A stretch of 34,282 nucleotides of DNA, from positions 1 through 34,282 of IMG/VR virus record IMGVR_UViG_3300032212_000104; one strand, 5' to 3'. The stretch's first letter is position 1. Every line of letters begins with the position of its first letter. This DNA is from a virus. Its lineage: Duplodnaviria; Caudoviricetes. Positions 1-34,282 of this stretch are shown here, in pieces. The translations under genes and the position numbers were made by a program. The notes below the pieces were generated by a model. The model did no database searches. It had not been told where the DNA came from and saw only the letters and a program-made list of their open reading frames with translations.

Positions 1-22
1 TCTTTAAAACTAAACTAATTTA
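1..22. other. Putative left telomere half-site
   Basis: TTAAAACTAAACTAATT (4-20) resembles the reverse complement of the right end (TTAAAATTAAAACTAATT); AT-rich non-coding terminus. Confidence 0.45.
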
Positions 23-236
23 TTTTATTCAACAAAAGCTAAGTAAACTTACGCATCAAGATAAATTAATTACAAAACAGCAATACAAGCCTCCTATGAC
101 CTATTCTAATTTAATCTTATTTTAAGCTACTTTATGCAGTTAGGCACGTTTTAAAGATATCTTAAGAAAAACCATTATTTAAGCATAACAATTAAGTTTC
201 AAACCGATATTATCTTAAAAAAGTGTATTTTAATTG

Positions 237-282
237 AATTTAATAATACTTAATTCATTTAAAGTTAATTTAATAATACTTA
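237..282. repeat. 16-bp direct repeat AATTTAATAATACTTA x2 upstream of the par operon; possible centromere/operator
   Basis: Identical copies at 237-252 and 267-282, starts 30 bp apart. Confidence 0.5.
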
Positions 283-331
283 CTGTACACTTTTTATATA
301 AATTCAAAACAGAAAGAAAAGAGGTGTAAGT

Positions 332-560: not shown

Positions 561-1172
561 ATGTCAGTAATTAGCGTAATATCACAAAAGGGAGGCGAGG
601 GGAAAACCCCTATTAGCTTCAACCTAGCGAACGAATTAGGTAGCAGAATCTTAACTAATGATAATGATATATTAGAGCTTATTTTTGCCCCTAATGCAAA
701 GATTATGCCTTTAAAAGAGATAGCGAGTTATGATCTAAAGAACTCTGGCAAAGACTTTGTTATCGATTTCGGGGGGTTCGTAGAGGCTGAGACAATCAGC
801 ATCATTAAAGACTCTGATCTCGTAATCGTTCCAACACGTAACAACCCGTCAAGCATTAAGCGAGGCTATCAGACGATACAGGAGCTACAGAAGCACAATA
901 AGAATATTATCGTAGTTGTAACAATGACAAAGAAAGACCGAGATTTCGGGCAAGTGCAAAAGCACTTTAAAGATTTAGAGATCAAAGCATTTTATGAATT
1001 AAAGCTTACAGAGCTGTTCGGTTACTCTATGGAAGTGGGGCAAACGATAAACGAGTACGTTAAGGACTCTCCGTTAATGCTTCACCGATACGGACGTCGT
1101 GAGGGGCAGATAAACGACTCTATTTTAGAACAATGGGACAATCTAATGACATATATCAAGGGGGCTTTATAA
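561..1172 (+). CDS. parA: ParA-family partition ATPase (short, type Ib)
   Basis: Deviant Walker A SQKGGEGKT, FVIDFGG Walker B, SDLVIVPT motif; no N-terminal HTH. Confidence 0.9.
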   Translation: MSVISVISQKGGEGKTPISFNLANELGSRILTNDNDILELIFAPNAKIMPLKEIASYDLKNSGKDFVIDFGGFVEAETISIIKDSDLVIVPTRNNPSSIKRGYQTIQELQKHNKNIIVVVTMTKKDRDFGQVQKHFKDLEIKAFYELKLTELFGYSMEVGQTINEYVKDSPLMLHRYGRREGQINDSILEQWDNLMTYIKGAL

Positions 1173-1173
1173 G

Positions 1174-1461
1174 ATGGAAGTAGAACAAGATAACTTTATG
1201 AGTGACGTACTAAGCGACGTCAAGAAAAAAGGGGATAGTAGCTACGAGACAGCCGATAACAAACCAAAGGCAGGGCGTAAGCGTTTACCGCAAGAGGAAA
1301 AGAAACAACGCCGAACGGTATTTTTTACGCCTGAGCAATTAGATCTATTAAATCAGGCCTGCGAGTATGAAGCCCTAGAAGATAATACTTTTATCATCAG
1401 AGCCACGATCAAAGAAGCTCGACGGGTTATCGCTGAACACACACCAAAAGAAGAAAACTAA
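1174..1461 (+). CDS. Putative ribbon-helix-helix centromere-binding partner of ParA
   Basis: Immediately after parA; flexible N-terminus, then RRTVFFTPEQLDLLNQAC strand-helix pattern. Confidence 0.6.
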   Translation: MEVEQDNFMSDVLSDVKKKGDSSYETADNKPKAGRKRLPQEEKKQRRTVFFTPEQLDLLNQACEYEALEDNTFIIRATIKEARRVIAEHTPKEEN

Positions 1462-3231: not shown

Positions 3232-3528
3232 ATGACTTATACAGAATTTATCGATCATTTAGAGTGGTGTATAGTTGAAATAGATCATTGGAGCAAATTA
3301 TCAAAACGTGTCAAACAAGGCGAGACGATAGAAGATAACAAGCCCGAATATATCGAGCAACAGCTTAACCATTGGGAGGCGGAGCAAGACGTCACAGCCA
3401 AGATCGCAAACATTAACCCGCTTAACGTGCTAAACATACTCGCCTATGATCCAGAGAACCGAAAACGGCTTTTTATGAAAGCGAAACGACTTAAAAACAA
3501 AAGATTACTAGATATTAACAAATTATGA
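3232..3528 (+). CDS. Hypothetical protein
   Basis: AAGGA RBS; preceded by TAGGC-TTCG-GCCTA hairpin. Confidence 0.75.
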   Translation: MTYTEFIDHLEWCIVEIDHWSKLSKRVKQGETIEDNKPEYIEQQLNHWEAEQDVTAKIANINPLNVLNILAYDPENRKRLFMKAKRLKNKRLLDINKL

Positions 3529-3575
3529 AAATTATTTTCATTTCTCTTGACATTATGAAAATAATTAGATAAACT
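3525..3575 (+). promoter_or_regulatory. Promoter/operator cassette copy 2
   Basis: ATGAAAATTATTTTCAT 3525-3541; TTGACA 3547-3552, 17 nt, TAAACT 3570-3575. Confidence 0.85.
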
Positions 3576-3604
3576 TACTACATATAAAAAGAAAAGGACT
3601 TAAG

Positions 3605-4083: not shown

Positions 4084-4392
4084 ATGCCTAAAGTAAAAAG
4101 CAATATCTATAGAGTTTTAAAACCCTGCTCTAACTGCCCGTTTTTAGATAACGGTAAAGAGATACACTTAAACTCTGGACGGGTTGACGATATCAAAGAG
4201 ACGCTTTTAAGCTCAGATCGTGAAAGCTTTAATTGTCACAAGACCGTCTATGATCTTGACACCCAGATGAACAGCACCGACAAACAAGAACTAAAAATGT
4301 GTGCGGGGGCTTATCAGTTTTTAAAAGATCAAAAGCGACCTAACCTACAAATGAAATTTGCTCTCTCTATGGGTATCGAAAAAGAATTATGA
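4084..4392 (+). CDS. Cys-rich putative metal-binding phage protein
   Basis: KPCSNCPF...FNCHKT...MCAGA motif pattern. Confidence 0.75.
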   Translation: MPKVKSNIYRVLKPCSNCPFLDNGKEIHLNSGRVDDIKETLLSSDRESFNCHKTVYDLDTQMNSTDKQELKMCAGAYQFLKDQKRPNLQMKFALSMGIEKEL

Positions 4393-4439
4393 AATTTATT
4401 TTCATTTTTCTTGACTTTATGAAAATAATTAGATAAAAT
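4389..4439 (+). promoter_or_regulatory. Promoter/operator cassette copy 3
   Basis: ATGAAATTTATTTTCAT 4389-4405; TTGACT 4411-4416, 17 nt, TAAAAT 4434-4439. Confidence 0.85.
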
Positions 4440-4469
4440 TAGTGTATATAAAAAGAAAAGGATCTCAAA

Positions 4470-4742: not shown

Positions 4743-4991
4743 ATGATGTTTACTTTAATACATAGATGCAGAAAAGGCATGACAAACGATGAACTTTTAG
4801 AGATGTATATAGACACTCTACAGGAAAGTATAGAAGTTTATAGAGATAATTTAAAAGAGCTAAGACTCGCTCAAAGCGTTAACGACCTATACGGCGAAGG
4901 CATGGCAAAAAGTTTAATTATCCGTTATCGGGTTTTCATAAAAGCTATTATTATCGAGATCAGAAAAATACAAAAGGGAAACAATGCCTAA
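4743..4991 (+). CDS. Small helical hypothetical protein
   Basis: Same 22-bp RBS/start cassette as 3845. Confidence 0.75.
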   Translation: MMFTLIHRCRKGMTNDELLEMYIDTLQESIEVYRDNLKELRLAQSVNDLYGEGMAKSLIIRYRVFIKAIIIEIRKIQKGNNA

Positions 4992-5250
4992 GCTAAAAGC
5001 AACCGATAAAAATATCGCTGAGGCTTACGACCTCACGCCTCAATCGCTAAGAAATTGGAAAAAATCAGACGACGAGAAATTAGTAAGACGCTATAACGCT
5101 CTTAAGGCCTCTTTCGAGCGTGACAATGGTCTACTATTAGATTTCACTTTTAAAGACGCCTCGACGAGTATAGTTAGCATTAACGACGTAAAAGAGCAGA
5201 TTGAGGCGAACGCAGACACGATCGAGACAATTTCGATAAGAGAGGGTTAA
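4984..5250 (+). CDS. Small HTH DNA-binding protein, candidate repressor of the cassette promoters
   Basis: TDKNIAEAYDLTPQSLRNWKK helix-turn-helix pattern. Confidence 0.7.
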   Translation: MPKLKATDKNIAEAYDLTPQSLRNWKKSDDEKLVRRYNALKASFERDNGLLLDFTFKDASTSIVSINDVKEQIEANADTIETISIREG

Positions 5251-5511: not shown

Positions 5512-6852
5512 ATGGAAACTCTTAACACCAAACAAGAGCTTAACAACTCTTTCGAGTTCTTTGTTAATTACATACATAAACGCTTAACAGGCGAGGCGTT
5601 TACGTGGCACGATCATAACAAGGCCATTGTTAAAGATCTGCTTTCTGTTTACAAATTAGAGCTTATGTTTTTAATTATCAACATTCCCCCACGTCTAGGA
5701 AAGTCTACGCTGATCCTTTACTTTATCGCGTGGACTATGTTTAAAAACAAGCTGACATATAATAACTATTACACTTATTCTGATCTACTCGTCGCCAGAG
5801 CTTACAAGATCGTAAGCGATATCTTTGATATCCCAGACGTAGAAGCGGGGGCAGATCTGGCCTATAAAAGAAAAAAAGACGACTTTAGCAACGACAAAAA
5901 CGGTGGGCTTTTTGCTATGACGACGCTAGGGCAGGTAACAGGTTTCGGGGCAGGCCGTAAGGACAAGATAGACGAGTTTAACGGCTGTATCGTGATAGAT
6001 GATCCTCTAAAGGCAAACGATAGTTTTTTACGCCAAAACAACGCTAACAAAGCGATAAAAAGTGCGGTACTTACCCGTAAGAATAACTCTAAAGTTCCGA
6101 TCGTTCTTATCATGCAACGCTTAAGCCTTGAAGATACGACGGCCTTTATTAAGAAGATCTACGGAAAGCTTTTCGAGAACGGCAAGGCGAAACACCTTGT
6201 TATCCCTGTACTGAAAAACGGCGTTTCTATCTCTGAGAAAGAGTACCCGATCGAGTTACTAGAGATCGAGAGAGAGAACGATCCCGCGACCTTTTACGCT
6301 CAGCTTATGCAAGCACCGCAAAATATAGAGGGGGGGATTTTTACCGAAAAGATCTTTGATTACAGCTCACCAGATCCAAGCAAACAGGGATCAATCGCGA
6401 CAATCCATTTTAATAAAGAAGATACGACTCAGCCTGTCGTCTTTTTAGCCTTTAAAAAAGAGGGTAAAAACCTTTTGATCTTAGACTATGCAGAGGACGA
6501 GCCGAACCCTGAGACGTTCTTTAATGATCTTAAGATCTTCTGTACTAAAAACGGCGTGAAAGTTCTACATATACCCCAGACCTTAGACGCTGAGGTTTTA
6601 ACTGAAAGCCTGCGACCGATCAAAACAAAAGCGATCACCGAAAAAGAGGATATTTCACTAAATGCCTTTTATGCTCTGGCTCAGCTAAGAGATAATAAAA
6701 TCGTCATTCAATACGACGAGGATCAAGAGGCCTTTAAAAAAGAGTTAAAAGCTTTTCCAAAGGCAAACAGGGACTTTTCAACAAAGGCGATCGTTAACGC
6801 GATTAATATTGCTTTAGGTGATACTAGAGGAAAAATAAGCAGGGCTATATAA
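5512..6852 (+). CDS. terL: Terminase large subunit; ATPase motifs intact, nuclease domain apparently degenerate
   Basis: IINIPPRLGKST Walker A, GQVTGFGAG, CIVIDDPLK Walker B, IMQRL coupling motif, AQLMQAP..EGGIF linker. Confidence 0.9.
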   Translation: METLNTKQELNNSFEFFVNYIHKRLTGEAFTWHDHNKAIVKDLLSVYKLELMFLIINIPPRLGKSTLILYFIAWTMFKNKLTYNNYYTYSDLLVARAYKIVSDIFDIPDVEAGADLAYKRKKDDFSNDKNGGLFAMTTLGQVTGFGAGRKDKIDEFNGCIVIDDPLKANDSFLRQNNANKAIKSAVLTRKNNSKVPIVLIMQRLSLEDTTAFIKKIYGKLFENGKAKHLVIPVLKNGVSISEKEYPIELLEIERENDPATFYAQLMQAPQNIEGGIFTEKIFDYSSPDPSKQGSIATIHFNKEDTTQPVVFLAFKKEGKNLLILDYAEDEPNPETFFNDLKIFCTKNGVKVLHIPQTLDAEVLTESLRPIKTKAITEKEDISLNAFYALAQLRDNKIVIQYDEDQEAFKKELKAFPKANRDFSTKAIVNAINIALGDTRGKISRAI

Positions 6853-7261: not shown

Positions 7262-7708
7262 ATGAAAAAAGAAACCGATCCATACAAAGAAGTAAAATTA
7301 TCAGAGGTATTAAAAGACGGATATCTAGTAGCCATCGAGGGCGACAACTCTTTATATGACGAAGATTTAGACAAATGGCTAAAAGAGAACGTAAAAAACT
7401 ACATTCTATTAAATAACATATACGACAATCCAGAAAAGCTTTTTCAACTCAAAGACATTAAAATAGACGCGTTCATATTTCAAACGACAGGCTTAAACCC
7501 AAAACTAAAAAGCCTAATTTCTTTATATACCACTGAAATAGGCAATTATCCGAAGCATTTCATTACAGTGTTTAGAGATAGTGAGGATTTTTTTTGGGAA
7601 GTCTTTAGAGAGCTAAAAGAGTATGAAGTCTATCAATATAACGAAGTAGATAAAAATGATTTACACATGACTAGGCAAGATCATTCTTGCAAAGAAAAAG
7701 AGGCTTAA
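7262..7708 (+). CDS. Hypothetical protein
   Basis: AAGG RBS; last gene of the + strand block; stop overlaps the endolysin stop. Confidence 0.75.
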   Translation: MKKETDPYKEVKLSEVLKDGYLVAIEGDNSLYDEDLDKWLKENVKNYILLNNIYDNPEKLFQLKDIKIDAFIFQTTGLNPKLKSLISLYTTEIGNYPKHFITVFRDSEDFFWEVFRELKEYEVYQYNEVDKNDLHMTRQDHSCKEKEA

Positions 7709-8214
7709 GCCCCCTCTCTAATCACTCTCGCGTAATTCTTACAGCGTCCCGTCGTCTGCTTATAAAGATCGCTATGCTCTGTTTTTGTGATCCCGTTTTT
7801 ATAAAGGATCTCATCAGAAGCCCTCTGAAAGTCTCCCTCCTCTAAAGCTTTAAGCATTGAGGGGAAACCGAGCAGGCCGTCGACGCCAAGCTGATACGAC
7901 ATTTCGATAACAGTTAGATATCTCATATTAGAAAGATTTTTGATAAAAGGCTTACGCTTGATAAGAGCTTTTATATTGCTCTCTACGCGTTTTCTAACGA
8001 TTATCATACTTTCGTCCTCAGTAATCCTTAAAACGTCCATATCGGGCGATAAACCACGTTTAACGCGGTCGTTTGCGATAAGCTCTAGCTCATCAGGCAA
8101 AAGAGGCATTTTTAAGCCGTGTCCGATCGTCTCAAAGCCTAAAGTATCTATATACACTACAGGGCGAAACCCCTCTCTTTTTGCGATCCCGCCGAACAAA
8201 TTATAACTAGACAT
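7705..8214 (-). CDS. Endolysin, T4-lysozyme-like (GH24)
   Basis: REGFRPVVYIDTLGFETIGHG with E-x8-D-x5-T catalytic triad; MSYQLGVDGLLGFPSML. Confidence 0.9.
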   Translation of the reverse strand: MSSYNLFGGIAKREGFRPVVYIDTLGFETIGHGLKMPLLPDELELIANDRVKRGLSPDMDVLRITEDESMIIVRKRVESNIKALIKRKPFIKNLSNMRYLTVIEMSYQLGVDGLLGFPSMLKALEEGDFQRASDEILYKNGITKTEHSDLYKQTTGRCKNYARVIREGA

Positions 8215-22002: not shown

Positions 22003-22965
22003 TTACGCTCCGATTAAATCATACATAGAGTTAGGGTTACGGTTTACCGTCCCGCCTATAGAAAAAGATCCCGCTACTTCTAGCGTTAAATTGTTCGCCT
22101 GTGGTGCTAAGAATTTTGGAGTGTCACCCCAATAAAAGCAGACTTTACGCTCATCTTTTTGGTAGATACGAACATCTACAGCCTCAGCCGAGCTAATGAT
22201 CTTATCTTTACCTGTTAACCACATACAATGCTCAGCTAAATAGTCTAAGACTGTCTGGCCTGTCACGGTATTAATGATCTTAGTCGCTAAGATCACATAA
22301 AGAGCCGTCGGAACAATCAAGCGGTTACGTGGATCGTTTGGCTTAAACTCCACCTGTTTAGAGTTTGCGTAAGCTGTCCCAAAAAGGTTATTAAGATCGC
22401 CGTTGATATCTACCGCAGGCTTAGCAGACCAAGCAATACCCCCAGAAACCGTTAACTCTGGAACGTCTGGATCATTATAAAAGCCTGTGATACCACGATC
22501 AGCATCACCAAAATAAGCGATCTCCTGAGCTAAACGTAAAGCCGACTCCATAGAGATCTCAGCCTTTAAAGGATCAAGCTTAGCACCAAGTTTAGAAGCA
22601 CGACCTAACTCTTTATAGGAGTATTTATACCCGACATTACCATCATGTAAAGGAACTGATTTTGTACCGATAAACGCGTCGATCCAAGAGATCTCGCCTG
22701 TCTCGCCTGCAAGTTTAGCCTTGCCCGCTTTTTGAACATAGCTGTACTCAAACGACGTCGCAAAAGGATCGCCGAGATTTTTAACAGGCAGAATATCCAT
22801 AAAGGTAATATCTACATACTCAGCCTCGTAAACTGTTTTTTCAACTGCCACTAAAGCAGAAGAAGCGTTAGCTGTCGCGTCTACGATTGCGTCATTTGCT
22901 AACGTGCTGTCAAGTGCTAAAACCTGAGCTGTAGCTACACTTAATAAAGTTTGTCTTTTACTCAT
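22003..22965 (-). CDS. Major capsid protein (DUF2184-like)
   Basis: VYEAEY, GYKYSYKEL, IAYFGDADRGITGFYNDP, TVLDYL motifs. Confidence 0.9.
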   Translation of the reverse strand: MSKRQTLLSVATAQVLALDSTLANDAIVDATANASSALVAVEKTVYEAEYVDITFMDILPVKNLGDPFATSFEYSYVQKAGKAKLAGETGEISWIDAFIGTKSVPLHDGNVGYKYSYKELGRASKLGAKLDPLKAEISMESALRLAQEIAYFGDADRGITGFYNDPDVPELTVSGGIAWSAKPAVDINGDLNNLFGTAYANSKQVEFKPNDPRNRLIVPTALYVILATKIINTVTGQTVLDYLAEHCMWLTGKDKIISSAEAVDVRIYQKDERKVCFYWGDTPKFLAPQANNLTLEVAGSFSIGGTVNRNPNSMYDLIGA

Positions 22966-22976
22966 TATAAGATCCC

Positions 22977-23426
22977 TTAAATTAGATTTGGTGTGATTTG
23001 AACTAAGCCCGCAACTGCTGACTCTGTGAAAACTGCGTTAATTTTTACCGCGTTAACGCCGTCTACTGTCGTCGTCACGTCGCCAACTGTTCCCGCCCCT
23101 GCAAGACAACGAGCGAAAACGGGCTGACCTTTAACGACGTCTGTATCTGAGTTCACCCAGATATCGCCAGACTTAGCGATCTTTCCGATCTCGCCAATAG
23201 CTAAAGTTGCAGAGCTTAAAGCGTCCTCTCTAATAAGAACACCGTCGATCGTGTCTGTTACTGCTGTAAGAGCTGTGATCTTACCTGTAGCGTCAACCTT
23301 CACAAGTGATCCGCGGTTTAAAGCGACGCCTGCCTCGTGTTCTGCTGAGCGTACAGGTTTAGAACTTGCCACTCCGCCTAAAATACCTTTAGCTACCTCG
23401 TAGCCTGCTTGAATTGCTCCACCCAT
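22977..23426 (-). CDS. Capsid decoration/cement protein
   Basis: GDIWV...VVKGQPVF motif; between protease and capsid genes. Confidence 0.75.
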   Translation of the reverse strand: MGGAIQAGYEVAKGILGGVASSKPVRSAEHEAGVALNRGSLVKVDATGKITALTAVTDTIDGVLIREDALSSATLAIGEIGKIAKSGDIWVNSDTDVVKGQPVFARCLAGAGTVGDVTTTVDGVNAVKINAVFTESAVAGLVQITPNLI

Positions 23427-24541
23427 TACTCACCTCCGATTTTTTTTGTAAATGCGTCTAAAGCGACGTTTAGATCGTCTGGCTTTTCATCTTTCCCGAT
23501 AACTGTAGGGATAAGACCTAAGCCTGTTTCGTAAGAGTCTTTCGCCTCGTTTAACTGCTCTGTTAAAGCGTCAAAAGCGTAAGCGATATACTCTGGACTT
23601 TTGCCGTCTAAGGCCATCTCTGGCTTATGTTTAGTAAGCACTTGACGTTTGATCGTCTCTGCGTCCTTGCCTTTAAAGCAAGCTGTATCGCCTAAAGCGT
23701 CTTTAGCTACAACCATAACATGAGCGAGATCAAACGCCTTAACCGCGATCGTTTTATCGTTCGCCTCTTTGATCTCGTCCTCTGAGGGCGTCATATCACT
23801 TTTAGCCTGTAGCTCGTCCATATCTTTAGCGTTTTTAACTAAAGCGTCCGATAGGCTTTGAGAGTTTGCGTAAGTAGCATCGGCGACGGCCTGCATAGCC
23901 TCGCTTTGATCTTCTGGAACATCAACCGAACTAAGCTCGATCTTTTCGCCTTTGGCATTAGTGCCGTAAAAGGTAATTTTCATTTTCTTAATCTCCTGTT
24001 TTAAATTTGAGTCCATACCAATAGAGCATGAACTACCACACCGCCCCGCATCAACAATCGCGATATGGTTAGGTATGATGTTAGTTTGCAAATAGTCATA
24101 ATCTGCATGATCGACCAACTCCAACGCGTACAGATAACCCGCTGAAAGTTCAACTTTTCCCGCTTGTATTTTCTCTATGATCTCCTTATCTATGATAGTT
24201 ATTTCACATTGTAAATGTGTGTTTTCTACTGCTTTAACCTCTGAGCTTACAAAGCCGATCAGATGATCTTTTGTGTTTTGTGCGTCGAGTAAGACCTCGG
24301 GGTGATCGTCGGTTAAGACAACGGTACGAAAGCCCTCCAAAACAGAATCTTTAAAAACCTCGTCGGGGCTACGGTACTCTTTATAAATCTTATCTGGCTC
24401 AAAGTCGGGGCTGATCTCTGATCCTAAGCGTTTTTGAATACCTACACGAGCAAAACGACAGGAGATCACTAAATAACCTCTGTCGTTTATAGACTCAGAT
24501 AGAAACTCAACCGCAGAATCTAAACCTAGAAAATTAAGCAC
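23426..24541 (-). CDS. Prohead protease/scaffold (DUF2213-like)
   Basis: ARVGIQ, YRSPDEVF, TDDHP, ELSAGY, NHIAIVDAGRCG. Confidence 0.92.
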   Translation of the reverse strand: MLNFLGLDSAVEFLSESINDRGYLVISCRFARVGIQKRLGSEISPDFEPDKIYKEYRSPDEVFKDSVLEGFRTVVLTDDHPEVLLDAQNTKDHLIGFVSSEVKAVENTHLQCEITIIDKEIIEKIQAGKVELSAGYLYALELVDHADYDYLQTNIIPNHIAIVDAGRCGSSCSIGMDSNLKQEIKKMKITFYGTNAKGEKIELSSVDVPEDQSEAMQAVADATYANSQSLSDALVKNAKDMDELQAKSDMTPSEDEIKEANDKTIAVKAFDLAHVMVVAKDALGDTACFKGKDAETIKRQVLTKHKPEMALDGKSPEYIAYAFDALTEQLNEAKDSYETGLGLIPTVIGKDEKPDDLNVALDAFTKKIGGE

Positions 24542-25871
24542 TTTCAGCTCCCTTCTCTTTATCTCTAGCCTCTAAAAAAGAGAATCTTTTATCATCTCTG
24601 ATCGTGGCCTCTCTGATCTCATCTTTTGAAAAGACCTCATTTGTAATATAGATCGCGTCGGTTTCTGCCTGAGTCTTTTTTCTGTCTGTTGTTTCTGCTA
24701 AGGTTTCCTGTTCTAATGAGAGCCATTCTGTTCCACACTCAAAAGGGTTTCCGAAAGTAGAAAAGGCTATGATCTCATCTAAGGTGTTAAGCTTAGGCTC
24801 TAAGCTTGTCTGTTCTGCTGAGATACGATCGTTAAAGTTTCTCGTGTCGCTTGCTCCTGTGGCGTTCATGCCGTCAGGGGAACGTCCCCAGAGACGCGTC
24901 GCGGGGATATCTGCCGAGCCTGCGACGTGAATCTGAGCTGATACATCGATATTATGCAGATCTTTAAAGTCGTTTGATTTTTTTAAAAAGTCGTCTTTAG
25001 CATCTAAGACAACGGCGTTAAGGTAAGATTTCATCTGATCGACGATCTTTAGGCGTGAGATAATGGCCTCATCTTCACCGTTGATCGCCTGCTCCGTAAG
25101 TTCCTCTAGTTTGTAGACGTTGACGTTTGCCTCGTCAAGCATATTTATAATAGCGTGGATTGTTTTATCTGATTTAATGATCGGTTCGATCGATCGCTGT
25201 ACTTTTGAGCCACCCCAGAAGTTATACTCACGTTTTTTATGCTCTGTGGCTTTAAGGCCTTTAAAGATAAGTAATCGTGATTTGTGGATCGTTAAGGTTT
25301 CGCCCAGACCTTGAACTCTAAAAAGCTCAGGCTCACCCAGACCATAATTAACAGGGAAAATATGACGCGGATCAAAAACTCTAAGGCGGAGAGATCCTTT
25401 TTTTATATTATGCTTTTTAAGGGGCTTATCCTGACTCTGACCGTCGTTAACGATCATGTGAATAGCTGAGCCTCCGAAAAGATCCGCCCACGTTATAGCC
25501 TCTTTAAAATGCTCTTTAACGTCAAGCTCTTTTTGTGCCTTTAAAAAGAGATCTAAACGCTCTTTTGTTTCGCTTGATACAATGTTACGCCATTTACGCG
25601 TAATCTCTGAGGCGGGGATATCTGCGATCTTACCGACAAGCCAGTTTTCAGAGTAAAGATCATCAGCTAAAGCGGGGTTATGATTTAGGTTAAGGTGAAA
25701 GCGGTAAAAAGAGGTATTTGTCAGAGAGTCTTTAAGACCTCCGATCCCTTTCATTACATTTGAGAAGCCATCAAAAGCGGGAATAGTCGGAGGTGTAGCG
25801 GGCGGGGTAGCTTTATCTAAAGCTAAAGCACGTCGTTTGCCTAGTTTGTTTCCGTCTTTTTTGCGTTTCAA
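24534..25871 (-). CDS. Portal protein (DUF1073-like)
   Basis: LYSENWL, LFGGSAI, IHKSRL, WGGS, ADIPATRLWGRSPDGMNATGASD. Confidence 0.92.
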   Translation of the reverse strand: MKRKKDGNKLGKRRALALDKATPPATPPTIPAFDGFSNVMKGIGGLKDSLTNTSFYRFHLNLNHNPALADDLYSENWLVGKIADIPASEITRKWRNIVSSETKERLDLFLKAQKELDVKEHFKEAITWADLFGGSAIHMIVNDGQSQDKPLKKHNIKKGSLRLRVFDPRHIFPVNYGLGEPELFRVQGLGETLTIHKSRLLIFKGLKATEHKKREYNFWGGSKVQRSIEPIIKSDKTIHAIINMLDEANVNVYKLEELTEQAINGEDEAIISRLKIVDQMKSYLNAVVLDAKDDFLKKSNDFKDLHNIDVSAQIHVAGSADIPATRLWGRSPDGMNATGASDTRNFNDRISAEQTSLEPKLNTLDEIIAFSTFGNPFECGTEWLSLEQETLAETTDRKKTQAETDAIYITNEVFSKDEIREATIRDDKRFSFLEARDKEKGAESA

Positions 25872-29159: not shown

Positions 29160-30272
29160 TTAAGCCTCTAATTTAAAAAGAGTATTAAAATCTAAGTCAC
29201 TCGCTACTAAACTTTTTTGATCTGCCATGTAATCCGCAAAATCTAAACCACTATCAAAAGAGAAAAGATTTTTAAAGTCCTTTTCAAGCATCTTTTTAAG
29301 TCTCTCATATCCGCCCCGTCCTTTCGTAAATTTTTCGCCGTCATATCCGCCGTCGCCGTCAAACGCTCCGATCATCTGTTTCGTTTTACTTAGCTCTTTA
29401 ACGTAGTCGATAAGCTCGTCGCTGATCCCAGATGATACGCTCTCGATCGAGATATAAGGGACACCAAACACAAACGCGACCAGAGCGTTTTTAAGCCCCT
29501 CGCCTATAAAAAAGAAGTTATGACGAGAGATAAGTATTTTCATTTCAAAAGAGAGGGGAAAAAGAAAGTCCTCGCCTCTGTTGTCAAGGGTTTTTTCTGA
29601 TCCTTGATAGAGGTACTTAGAGATAACTTTCCCCTCTTTTGGATCTATGGCTCGATACTTTGAGATATCAGCGACCTTACGCTTATCGTCTCGCATGATG
29701 ATCGCGGGGCATTTAAAAAAATCGTCATAAGCTAACAGCTCAGAGGTGATATAGTTTAGACGCTTTAACGCGGGTTTATCGACTCTAAAAGTGCTATGCT
29801 CTAAGAGCTTTTCAAAGACAGGAGAAACCGCGATTATATCTGAGTTATCGATAGGTATAAAGATCGTAAAGTCTTTATTGTTTGCTAGGAGTTTGTTAGC
29901 TTTAAAAGCTAGATCTTTTTTGATCTTTACGGCGTCTTTAGCGGGCTTTTCTTTTTTTGGGAGGGGGTTATGTCGTTGCGGGCTGTTTTCCTCACGTTCA
30001 CCGCCTGCGTAGGCTAAGGCCTTTTCTTTGGCCTCCATTTTACTAACGCCGTGGTATAGTTCTATAAAGTCAAAGATATCACCACCTTTACCACAGCCGA
30101 AACAATGGCATATCTGTTTAGTAGGTGAAACGCTAAAGCTTGCTGAGTCCTCAGAGTGAAAAGGACAAGGGGCGACAAAGTTTGCTCCTTTTTTTACTAG
30201 GGGAATAAAGTCTGATATATAGTCAACTATATCGATCGCGTCTTTAATCTCGCTCATTGATTTTCTAGCCAT
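29160..30272 (-). CDS. DnaG-like primase (CHC2 zinc finger + TOPRIM)
   Basis: CPFHSEDSASF...CHCFGCGKGGD; IGEGLKNAL; AFDGD; DFADY. Confidence 0.88.
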   Translation of the reverse strand: MARKSMSEIKDAIDIVDYISDFIPLVKKGANFVAPCPFHSEDSASFSVSPTKQICHCFGCGKGGDIFDFIELYHGVSKMEAKEKALAYAGGEREENSPQRHNPLPKKEKPAKDAVKIKKDLAFKANKLLANNKDFTIFIPIDNSDIIAVSPVFEKLLEHSTFRVDKPALKRLNYITSELLAYDDFFKCPAIIMRDDKRKVADISKYRAIDPKEGKVISKYLYQGSEKTLDNRGEDFLFPLSFEMKILISRHNFFFIGEGLKNALVAFVFGVPYISIESVSSGISDELIDYVKELSKTKQMIGAFDGDGGYDGEKFTKGRGGYERLKKMLEKDFKNLFSFDSGLDFADYMADQKSLVASDLDFNTLFKLEA

Positions 30273-30409
30273 TATAAAGCCCCCATTTTATTAAAGCATT
30301 TTCTATCGTAGAAGTAGAATTATATCTATATACAAACGTAATACGCTCAATCGTAAACCCTTGTTTATATAGAGATATAATCGCGTCTTTTTGACACTCT
30401 AAGGCGTGT

Positions 30410-30610
30410 TTAAATAGCAATGCGTTTTCCTTTGTTTGACTTTCTCTCTGTATGAAAATAGTTTTTTAAAAAGTCGTCAAAATCTTTCTGGGAGACTCTA
30501 TAGTCACGGCCATTTTTTTCACCTTTGAGATAGCCTTTTCTTATCATATAAGAGACTGCCCCCTGCGTTCGTTCTAAAATGGTCGCAATTACTTTAGTTT
30601 CATAATACAT
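30410..30610 (-). CDS. Excisionase-like HTH protein
   Basis: YETKVIATILERTQGAVSYMIRKGYLKGEKNGRDYRVS. Confidence 0.8.
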   Translation of the reverse strand: MYYETKVIATILERTQGAVSYMIRKGYLKGEKNGRDYRVSQKDFDDFLKNYFHTERKSNKGKRIAI

Positions 30611-30821: not shown

Positions 30822-31002
30822 GTACAAATTGTACATATAAGAATATAAATAAAATCTTAAATTAAAGAAAAGTTTAAAACTTGTGTACTTAATGTACATT
30901 TATTTCACTTTTTCACACTTAATATATTTTAAATAACTTTTTTCATCTTAAAAAAATACTCTATATTAATAATTATTTTTTAATGTATGTACATTATGTA
31001 CA
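30821..31002. promoter_or_regulatory. Immunity region with three 15-bp operators TGTACW-N3-TGTACA
   Basis: TGTACAAATTGTACA 30821-30835, TGTACTTAATGTACA 30884-30898, TGTACATTATGTACA 30988-31002. Confidence 0.8.
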
Positions 31003-31037
31003 CATTATTTATTTTTCTGTATACTTACGCTAAATGA

Positions 31038-32633: not shown

Positions 32634-33866
32634 TTACATTAGAGCTTGTTTCGCTTTTTTTAGATATCCGTGGATATCGAAATACTCTGATATAATATTT
32701 CTTTTATAGTAGTGCTTTAAGGCTTCATAGTCTTTATCTTCATGCCCTAATATTTCTTGCATATATGTATCTTGACGCTTTTTATTAGCGTCTCTAGGGT
32801 TATTCTGATTATAGATAAACTCGCAAGTCATAGCATAAAGGCCTCTAAAGCTTGTCGTTTTCCCATCTACTAATAAATCACTATCTATTTTGTTCCATTT
32901 TAGCAAGTTGTGAGCGTGTTTAGCTCTATTGTTATCCTCTCTTAATGTTTTCGGGATTGACGATCTTAAAGTCTCGATAACTTTTAATGTCTCGTCAGCC
33001 GTTAAAAAAAGAGTGGGGATCACGATCGATTTTACATTACTCGTCTCTCTCTTTTTCCCGATCCCTATTACTTTGATTTTGTAGTCGTTTACTTTTTCAA
33101 AATCTGATAAGACAATAAGCTCTTTCAGTCTTCGACCGCAGGCCAAAGAAACCATTGTCACAAGTTTAGTAAACACCTCAGCTTTGTTTTTTTTAGGAAT
33201 CTCTTGACCTATTAGTTTTTTATTTAGTTCTATAAAATGATGTATCTTGCCTATAGCGATAGGTTTATCGCTTGTTTTCATTCTGCTTGACTTTAATACT
33301 CTCACCCCCTCGTTAAGGTAATCATGTACTCGCTTAGGAACAGTGAAGAAAGAGAGAGCATAGTCTCTTTTATTATCTTCTATCTCTGACTCTTTAATTT
33401 TATTTCTAATCTTTTTAAGATGATCCAAAACTGTATTAAACTCGTAAAAGTGGGTAAAGAAATAAACGTACTCGTTAAAAATATAAGGTATAGCCTCTTT
33501 CTTTTTTGTCTGTATGTCTTTTACTATTTGTATGGCTATATCTTCGATCGTATCCGCGTCATACATAGCTAAATGTTCAATATGCTGTTTTCTGGGTGTA
33601 GCCTTAAGTTGATCCTCTAGCTTTCTTTCCCTATCTCTTAGCTCGTTTATCTTTCGCATATACAAATCATTTAAGAGCGTAGAGGCAAAATCTGCTTTTA
33701 AGGTGTTAACGTATGTTATGGCGGTATCTAAGGAACACCAAAATATATCTTTTGACTGTTCAAAAGATATATATTCGTCTGTTTCTTTTATGTAGTTCTT
33801 AATTCTAGTATTCCATCTAGCTTTATTATCATACTGCATCAGGTAAGAAGTGAGATTCATTTTCAT
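32634..33866 (-). CDS. Protelomerase / telomere resolvase (TelN/TelK/ResT family)
   Basis: Ordered catalytic motifs LACGRRLKEL (R), GIGKKR (K), IPTL, SFRGLYA (R), EILGHED (H), LKHY (Y); terminal position. Confidence 0.9.
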   Translation of the reverse strand: MKMNLTSYLMQYDNKARWNTRIKNYIKETDEYISFEQSKDIFWCSLDTAITYVNTLKADFASTLLNDLYMRKINELRDRERKLEDQLKATPRKQHIEHLAMYDADTIEDIAIQIVKDIQTKKKEAIPYIFNEYVYFFTHFYEFNTVLDHLKKIRNKIKESEIEDNKRDYALSFFTVPKRVHDYLNEGVRVLKSSRMKTSDKPIAIGKIHHFIELNKKLIGQEIPKKNKAEVFTKLVTMVSLACGRRLKELIVLSDFEKVNDYKIKVIGIGKKRETSNVKSIVIPTLFLTADETLKVIETLRSSIPKTLREDNNRAKHAHNLLKWNKIDSDLLVDGKTTSFRGLYAMTCEFIYNQNNPRDANKKRQDTYMQEILGHEDKDYEALKHYYKRNIISEYFDIHGYLKKAKQALM

Positions 33867-34261
33867 AAGCGTCCTTTTAATACAATTATTTTACAGTAAA
33901 TTACATTAAAAACACTTTAAATAAATTAACTTAATTTAAAATGTATTAAATTAATTTAAAGTTAATTTAATTGTAGTTTTTTAAATATAACTTAAATTAA
34001 GATTGAAAGCAAAATACCTATAAACTTAAGCGAGATTATGCTCATATTCACTGATAAAATCTTAAATATACTATCATAGAAATACTTAAAAAACACTTAA
34101 TAAAAAAATGCTAATAGAGGCCTCCTGTGGCCTATTTTTAACAACTTACACCACGTAAACCTAAATCATAACTATACTTAAATTAAAATTAAAATTATTA
34201 TCTAATTTAATTTTTAAGGTAGCATATTAGCTTAAGAATATCTGAGGTTAACCTTAATTCA

Positions 34262-34282
34262 TTTAATTAGTTTTAATTTTAA
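34262..34282. other. Putative right telomere half-site
   Basis: AATTAGTTTTAATTTTAA is an imperfect inverted copy of the left terminus; lies upstream of the protelomerase gene. Confidence 0.45.

Follow-up and report, generated by a model that had tools for sequence, protein, structure and literature searches.

From alignments and a structure model, the virus described here appears to belong to a new group of protelomerase-bearing phages with a genuine, conserved large terminase (TerL) in which the nuclease is dead. The terL gene (5512..6852, plus strand) is the sole terminase gene of the window, by which we mean the entire 34,282-nucleotide stretch analysed, itself the whole virus record (G000). 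Its product keeps an intact packaging ATPase and is likely to act as a pure DNA pump that loads unit-length genomes. The reading we favour, and hold to be reasonably probable, is that this motor packs hairpin-ended unit genomes, resolved by the protelomerase, without cutting them, in the manner of phi29 save for the hairpins.

The terminase retains a conserved ATPase

The terL reading frame encodes 446 residues with no internal stop. Residues 8-416 match the phrog_38 family of terminase large subunits (E 3.1e-34), and no Pfam family is matched at E<=0.01. An AlphaFold2 model of the protein (mean pLDDT 88) gives terminase matches along the whole chain. The ATPase domain (residues 1-273, 5512..6330), delimited by motif alignment and by the structural match to the ATPase of T4 gp17 (2o0j: Z 19.1, rmsd 3.2, 240 aligned), contains the Walker A (5686-5706), Walker B (5989-6003) and MQRL (6112-6123) motifs, all on the plus strand.

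A homologue search returned 166 proteins, and the alignment and counts given here rest on the 120 that were listed, comprising 96 outgroup proteins and a clade of 24 that includes the window's own. Clade members are 44-52% identical over the whole length, and the next listed homologues stand at 36% or lower. Among these listed homologues, residues K64, D163, D164, R189, Q202, R203, D208, Q264 and Q267 are present in 24/24 clade and 96/96 outgroup proteins; R61 and K167 are likewise invariant in the clade and occur in 81/96 and 93/96 of the aligned outgroup, respectively. The last two residues of Walker B are DD in place of DE, and since the same DD is found in 96/96 listed outgroup proteins it is the norm of the family. 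The phrog_38/PF17289 terminases of Acinetobacter phage AM106, Iodobacter phage PhiPLPE and Bordetella phages IFTN are 24-29% identical to the window TerL and share its INIPPR..GK, IIDDP and MQRL motifs. Terminases of this kind retain the nuclease acids (94/96 listed), unlike the window clade, and in PhiPLPE terS adjoins terL, again unlike the clade. No isolated phage or plasmid of the clade was found in the phage and plasmid collections, where the best TerL matches have 24-32% identity.

The nuclease domain keeps its fold and has lost its catalytic acids

In the AlphaFold2 model, the C-terminal domain (residues 274-435, 6331..6816, plus strand) superposes on the G20c nuclease (5m1q: Z 14.6, rmsd 3.0, 152 aligned) and on the SPP1, RB49 and herpesvirus nucleases (Z 12-13); on this prediction its RNase H-like fold is retained. 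In G20c terminase D294, D347 and D429 are reported to be indispensable, and mutants at these residues are the least active; D300 is dispensable, and H427 and D428 help (PMC5389553). We located the equivalent positions with a profile of 47 outgroup terminases, whose DYxV, IEDK and HDD motifs were aligned to G20c D300, D347 and H427-D429, and placed the clade on this profile by two profile-profile alignments. The equivalence of N301 to D294 comes from these alignments and from the six-residue spacing to D300. By this mapping G20c D294, D300, D347, H427, D428 and D429 correspond in the window to N301, Q307, P355, R420, D421 and F422, and K425 stands at the last Asp of the HDDxxD motif. The replaced acid positions are thus N301 (6412-6414), P355 (6574-6576), F422 (6775-6777) and K425 (6784-6786), all on the plus strand.

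The replacements are a property of the clade. Across its 24 listed members, position 301 is Asn in 18 and Asp in 6; position 307 is Glu in 19, Asp in 2, Gln in 2 and Lys in 1; and position 355 is Pro throughout. Arg is invariant at 420 and followed at 421 by Asp (18), Glu (3) or Asn (3), position 422 is Phe (16) or Tyr (8), and 425 is Lys (22) or Arg (2). No acid of the catalytic triad is kept in 18/24 of these members and one is kept in the other 6/24. The 96 listed outgroup proteins have all three acids in 94 cases and two in one case, the last being a 321-residue fragment that lacks the domain. Judged on these alignments, the loss of the triad in the clade relative to the outgroup is far above chance. 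A second outgroup, from a profile search, gave 117 full-length proteins of 143 (26 were left out by length), and scoring of three acidic columns found three acids in 102, two in 13, one in 2 and zero in none; the low scorers look mostly like misalignment in the printed rows. Segment 416-426 carries a mean net charge of +1.4 among clade members, as against -2.6 for the other proteins.

Misalignment of the first acid was considered and rejected as an explanation. In strand 1 the MAFFT and hhalign placements are four residues apart, the former putting T297 and the latter N301 at the first Asp, and there is no window acid either way; the MAFFT column holds no acid in 24/24 listed clade members.

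The first-pass annotation of this DNA had read the Walker A, Walker B and MQRL motifs as intact, most metal-binding acids as missing from four C-terminal segments, and the length of the nuclease domain as kept. The first of these is borne out by the ATPase residues invariant in 24/24 listed clade members. It had also picked the right segments, the triad positions in the window being N301, P355 and F422, and the kept length agrees with the retained fold of the AlphaFold2 model and with the full-length clade members.

The nuclease was lost once and the domain is under selection

All 24 listed clade members are full length, with within-clade identity of 56% in the dead domain and 65% in the ATPase. 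For the dead domain, dN/dS equals 0.04 in both the L001-L021 and the L021-L029 pair, compared with 0.04 and 0.05 for the ATPase of the same pairs; it is 0.09-0.40 in more distant unsaturated pairs, and saturation affects many of the pairs that include the window. These codon comparisons indicate that the dead nuclease domain is under purifying selection. Pseudogene decay is ruled out by the full length in 24/24 listed members and the dN/dS of 0.04 in close pairs, and sequencing error by relatives that show the same loss and by a public run (X1), which may be the source of the window sequence, with no differing letters.

In a quick tree built from the ATPase only (80 rows, with 15/24 listed clade members) the clade forms one branch with a long stem (SH-aLRT 100). 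A single branch indicates that the nuclease was lost once and the loss then kept under selection, and the association with the protelomerase described below therefore counts as one data point.

terL lies with the partition genes, far from the portal

The minus strand of the window carries a set of contractile-tail genes, identified by Pfam and PHROG matches, that runs from the portal protein (24534..25871), which opens the head-tail operon with neither terS nor terL before it, through the head maturation protease (DUF2213, 23426..24541) and major capsid protein (22003..22965) to the endolysin (7705-8214). The portal gene runs directly into the protease gene, and 5/5 records have no Mu F-like minor head gene. 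Replication and immunity genes occupy 26-32 kb, the former including separate CHC2 primase and DUF927 genes. On the plus strand, a ParA partition ATPase (561..1172) points inward from the left end and is followed by a small partner (1174..1461), probably ParB/ParG-like, which lies between parA and terL and is kept in 8/8 loci compared. terL itself has the same orientation, sits 5 kb in from the left end and is separated from the portal by 18 kb. In all eight loci it stands behind parA and the partner, on the strand opposite to the late genes, and these three are the only genes common to the eight left ends; the genes around terL vary.

Clade loci account for 3/20 from IMG/VR, 1/3 from genomes (a Sulfurimonas MAG) and, besides the window record itself, 7/19 from metagenomes. 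Two relatives, G001 (32.3 kb) and G002 (33.8 kb), have the window map end to end, protelomerase included, and G003 (21.5 kb) corresponds to the left part of the same map. Several further clade proteins sit on contigs of 31.7-35.0 kb, which fits a single genome size. CheckV estimates the completeness of the three long records at 36-38%; we read this low score as reflecting a poor reference because independent records end at one and the same pair of genes. Alternatively, assemblies could break at the record ends on account of inverted repeats rich in AT (13-23% GC). The hosts are probably relatives of Sulfurimonas, on the basis of a single MAG, although a member is labelled Thiotrichales in another source.

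A protelomerase faces inward from the opposite end

At the right end of the window lies a protelomerase of the ResT/TelK family (32634..33866, minus strand), and the first-pass annotation was correct in recognising one: the match to PF16684 has an E of 5.7e-14 and 52.5 bits (cut-off 27). Residues R244, K270, R339, H373 and those of the Y385 region are invariant in 13/13 aligned proteins (P0121 numbering). Dead terL and a far-end protelomerase occur together in 3/3 records of at least 32 kb (the window, G001 and G002), which share one origin, and a reverse search of IMG/VR with the protelomerase alignment returned two records, G001 and G002, both with dead terL. The Sulfurimonas genome G004, which carries terL on a 7.9-kb contig, has no protelomerase match. 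A search of 353 genomes from the family to which G004 belongs found the terL clade in one and a distant protelomerase in one other. The latter is a divergent protelomerase-like gene in an operon with parA and a small partner on a short contig (L053, G029:C81, 2594 nt), for which no viral relative was found. The protelomerase of G001 (P0139, L046:167-1693) has an insertion of ~90-100 residues inside its catalytic domain.

ParA and the protelomerase face inward from opposite ends of the window, whereas in the virion genome of the telomere phage VP882 they diverge from the middle, and we therefore take the window layout to be that of the linear prophage. Nine of ten distinct related loci (L021 and L028 counted as one) start 87-510 nt before parA, which begins at 561 in the window, and the tenth starts after parA; no protelomerase sequence precedes parA in any of the ten. 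The AT-rich left (1..331) and right (33867..34282) ends of the window are putative telL and telR regions, with the tips not captured. An exact terminal inverted repeat of 99 nt is present in G002, and a second, of about 100 nt and shortened at one end, in G001; neither is equalled in 300 shuffles (0/300). The window ends are weakly alike, with 10/300 shuffles as good over 40 nt and 3/300 over 420 nt.

No hairpin tip sequence was captured in the contigs, and contigs of one run (X1) contain no right-left end junction, stopping at 10 and 34282 at a depth of about 14. These stops, seen in contigs of a single run, carry no weight; a prophage would give the same picture, and assemblies would in any case break at a long palindromic junction. 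A short GC-richer motif lies near both window ends (89-110 and 34119-34142) in direct rather than inverted orientation, and G001, L021 and L034 have a related motif close to their left ends.

Search for other terminase components

A single terminase match per record, and no second terminase, was found in 4/4 records. The HNH family (PF01844) was detected in 0/5 records (10/14 known control genomes), Terminase_2 TerS (PF03592) in 0/5 (1/14 controls) and the Mu F family in 0/5 (5/14 controls). In 4/4 records that hold the region there is no terL ahead of the portal gene. G357, a fifth record and a 24.8-kb fragment, likewise lacks terL at that place.

TerS families are very diverse. Our searches found no conserved terS and no conserved neighbour of terL, giving weak HTH matches only. 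A 26-residue stretch of the ORF at 4984-5250 weakly matches a TerS profile (E 0.0034), and this ORF is not kept in relatives. The HTH protein at 30410-30610, whose orthologue in G002 matches a TerS profile through its HTH (E 1e-8), was rejected as a TerS and judged a regulator on account of its position next to cI/cro and of the match between its C-terminal half and a late-activator family. Outside the partition, structural, replication and regulator genes, no small ORF is common to the window, G001 and G002. The many small ORFs without a family could include a nuclease or a TerS, and a nuclease could also come from the host. Co-folding of TerL with the protelomerase scored 0.00 in two runs, which has no weight either way.

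A model for packaging without cutting

The element would be a linear plasmid prophage whose map is bounded by parA on one side and the protelomerase on the other and whose ends are presumed closed. In N15-like phages, replication yields telomere-joined dimers from which the protelomerase resolves monomers. Telomere-joined dimers would be resolved in the same way here, and the resulting monomers would be the packaging substrate in lytic growth; with monomers as substrate, neither a cos or pac cut nor a classical TerS would be needed. The dead domain has been retained, and by analogy with phi29 may serve in portal docking and DNA holding, with the basic residues R420 and K425 in place of His and Asp. 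Injected DNA would already have the prophage form, making circularisation unnecessary, and terL, no longer needing a linked cos or pac site, would have been free to leave the vicinity of the portal. In its fullest form, which we judge slightly better than an even bet, the virion DNA would be the same as the plasmid prophage, a linear molecule covalently closed by a hairpin at each end, protelomerase action would replace cos or pac cuts, TerL would be a cut-free pump with no need of a classical small subunit, and circularisation of the genome would never occur.

Cut-free packaging had been put forward in the first-pass annotation. The loss of the residues, the retained fold, the link to a protelomerase and the searches that found no second terminase, conserved terS or HNH protein all speak for it; the hairpin ends of the virion DNA are a part that we infer. 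Nuclease-dead T4 gp17 has been reported to pack linear and not circular DNA in vitro, with no need of the small subunit, and on substrates shorter than 200 bp its translocation is blocked by hairpin ends (PMC3012670). By analogy, this block counts against packaging of closed ends, although it concerns another motor and short DNA. It also counts against the model that a linear map is equally expected from the prophage of a cos-cutting telomere phage.

Other accounts of the same data differ in where they place the cut or the motor. Unit genomes might be packed uncut after a host or phage enzyme has opened their tips, giving open virion ends that are resealed after injection. The T4 hairpin block and the absence of tip sequence in the contigs would both suit this account, which we nonetheless consider unlikely: the shared genes hold no conserved candidate nuclease, and the block was seen on short DNA with a different motor. 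Alternatively, concatemers might form as usual and be given a cos- or pac-like cut by a separate, unrecognised phage or host nuclease, TerL serving only to translocate. Known telomere phages do inject cos-ended DNA and circularise through their cohesive ends, after which the protelomerase cuts telRL into two hairpins (PMC10612081, PMC9170930), and many small ORFs here are unannotated, but the want of a small ORF shared by the window, G001 and G002, of HNH proteins in all five records and of terL in the portal operon makes such a nuclease a poor prospect.

The position of terL behind parA and its partner in 8/8 loci, opposite in strand to the late genes, would also be explained if a helper phage terminase did the packaging and TerL had been repurposed, either for DNA movement with the partition system or for interference. 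The complete head-and-tail gene set with its own portal, and the invariance of the terminase ATPase motifs, render this quite improbable. Least credible of all is that the C-terminal domain still cuts DNA with relocated acids. Clade-specific acidic columns at 303, 328, 374 and 411 are indeed well kept, and most clade members retain D421 and an acid at 307; yet the canonical positions are Asn, Pro and Phe/Tyr, the retained acids match non-essential or helper residues of G20c, and the window itself has Q307.

Comparison with known systems

The N15-like phages (N15, PY54, phiKO2, VP882, PhiHAP-1 and NAR688) resemble the window in that the protelomerase gene and the partition genes face inward from the two ends of the linear map and the virion gene set is full. 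They differ in carrying TerS and TerL at the virion end and in having cohesive ends, the prophage being ~50% permuted relative to the virion (PMC10612081), whereas the window has terL without catalytic acids in the par operon, and replicates with a CHC2 primase and DUF927 helicase. VP882 has a Nu1-like terS-terL pair at its virion left end; its TerL is of the lambda gpA type, as opposed to phrog_38, with a full match to the gpA nuclease and three acidic motifs visible by eye. A survey of telomere phages gives TerL and TerS as usual parts and, in its main text, makes no mention of Campylobacter (PMC12042878).

A functional parallel for uncut packaging is with phi29 gp16 and asccphi28 gp11, which like the window TerL keep the ATPase and have a C-terminal domain derived from RNase H without catalytic acids. 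phi29 packages unit-length DNA, and its vestigial nuclease domain still binds DNA (PMC7672431); a unit-length substrate is thus demonstrated for phi29 and presumed for the window. The ends of phi29 DNA bear terminal protein from protein-primed replication and its nuclease domain is reduced (PMC7672431), in contrast to the full-length domain of the window, which is nearest to active terminase nucleases. No protein-primed polymerase or terminal protein family was found among the window ORFs scanned, which include contractile-tail genes and the protelomerase instead. We regard the likeness to the vestigial nuclease of phi29 as one of analogy and not descent, the fold match to phi28 gp11 being much weaker than those to terminases. 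Reviews name phi29-like phages as the tailed phages with a non-cutting motor (PMC7672431, PMC13595956), and the second of these uses phi29-type phages as its example of nuclease-free motors (PMC13595956, 2026). Among the papers listed by our searches of an open-access library, none couples a protelomerase to a dead TerL; supplements of large phage catalogues may hold such genomes.

If the cut-free model is correct, these phages represent a second, independent route to packaging without cutting, tied to hairpin telomeres, and a new type of phage genome end. Their portal motor would be able to accept a closed hairpin end, which would make it a naturally nuclease-free motor with which closed linear DNA could be packed, and the closed ends of injected DNA would offer host exonucleases no free end. 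Tools that infer packaging mode from TerL family or read pile-ups may misread such phages, and near-whole genomes may be scored as one-third complete.

Additional features of the genomes

Three relatives have a reverse transcriptase and Avd of a diversity-generating retroelement (L001:7351-8996 in G001, L002:8124-9766 in G002 and L003:5524-6845 in G003) adjoining the tail-fibre gene; the element is absent from the window. A two-HTH regulator of 150 residues in G001, G002 and G357 appears in the window to be split into two short overlapping frames (30272-30610, minus strand). Inverted repeats at 30860-31026, between the cro-like and cI-like genes, are likely operators of the immunity switch. 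Upstream of terL, three copies of a 78-nt element (2720-2797, 3521-3598 and 4385-4462), each with a palindrome directly before a sigma-70-like promoter, head variable cassettes of small genes and are likely to be repressed promoters or recombination cassettes.
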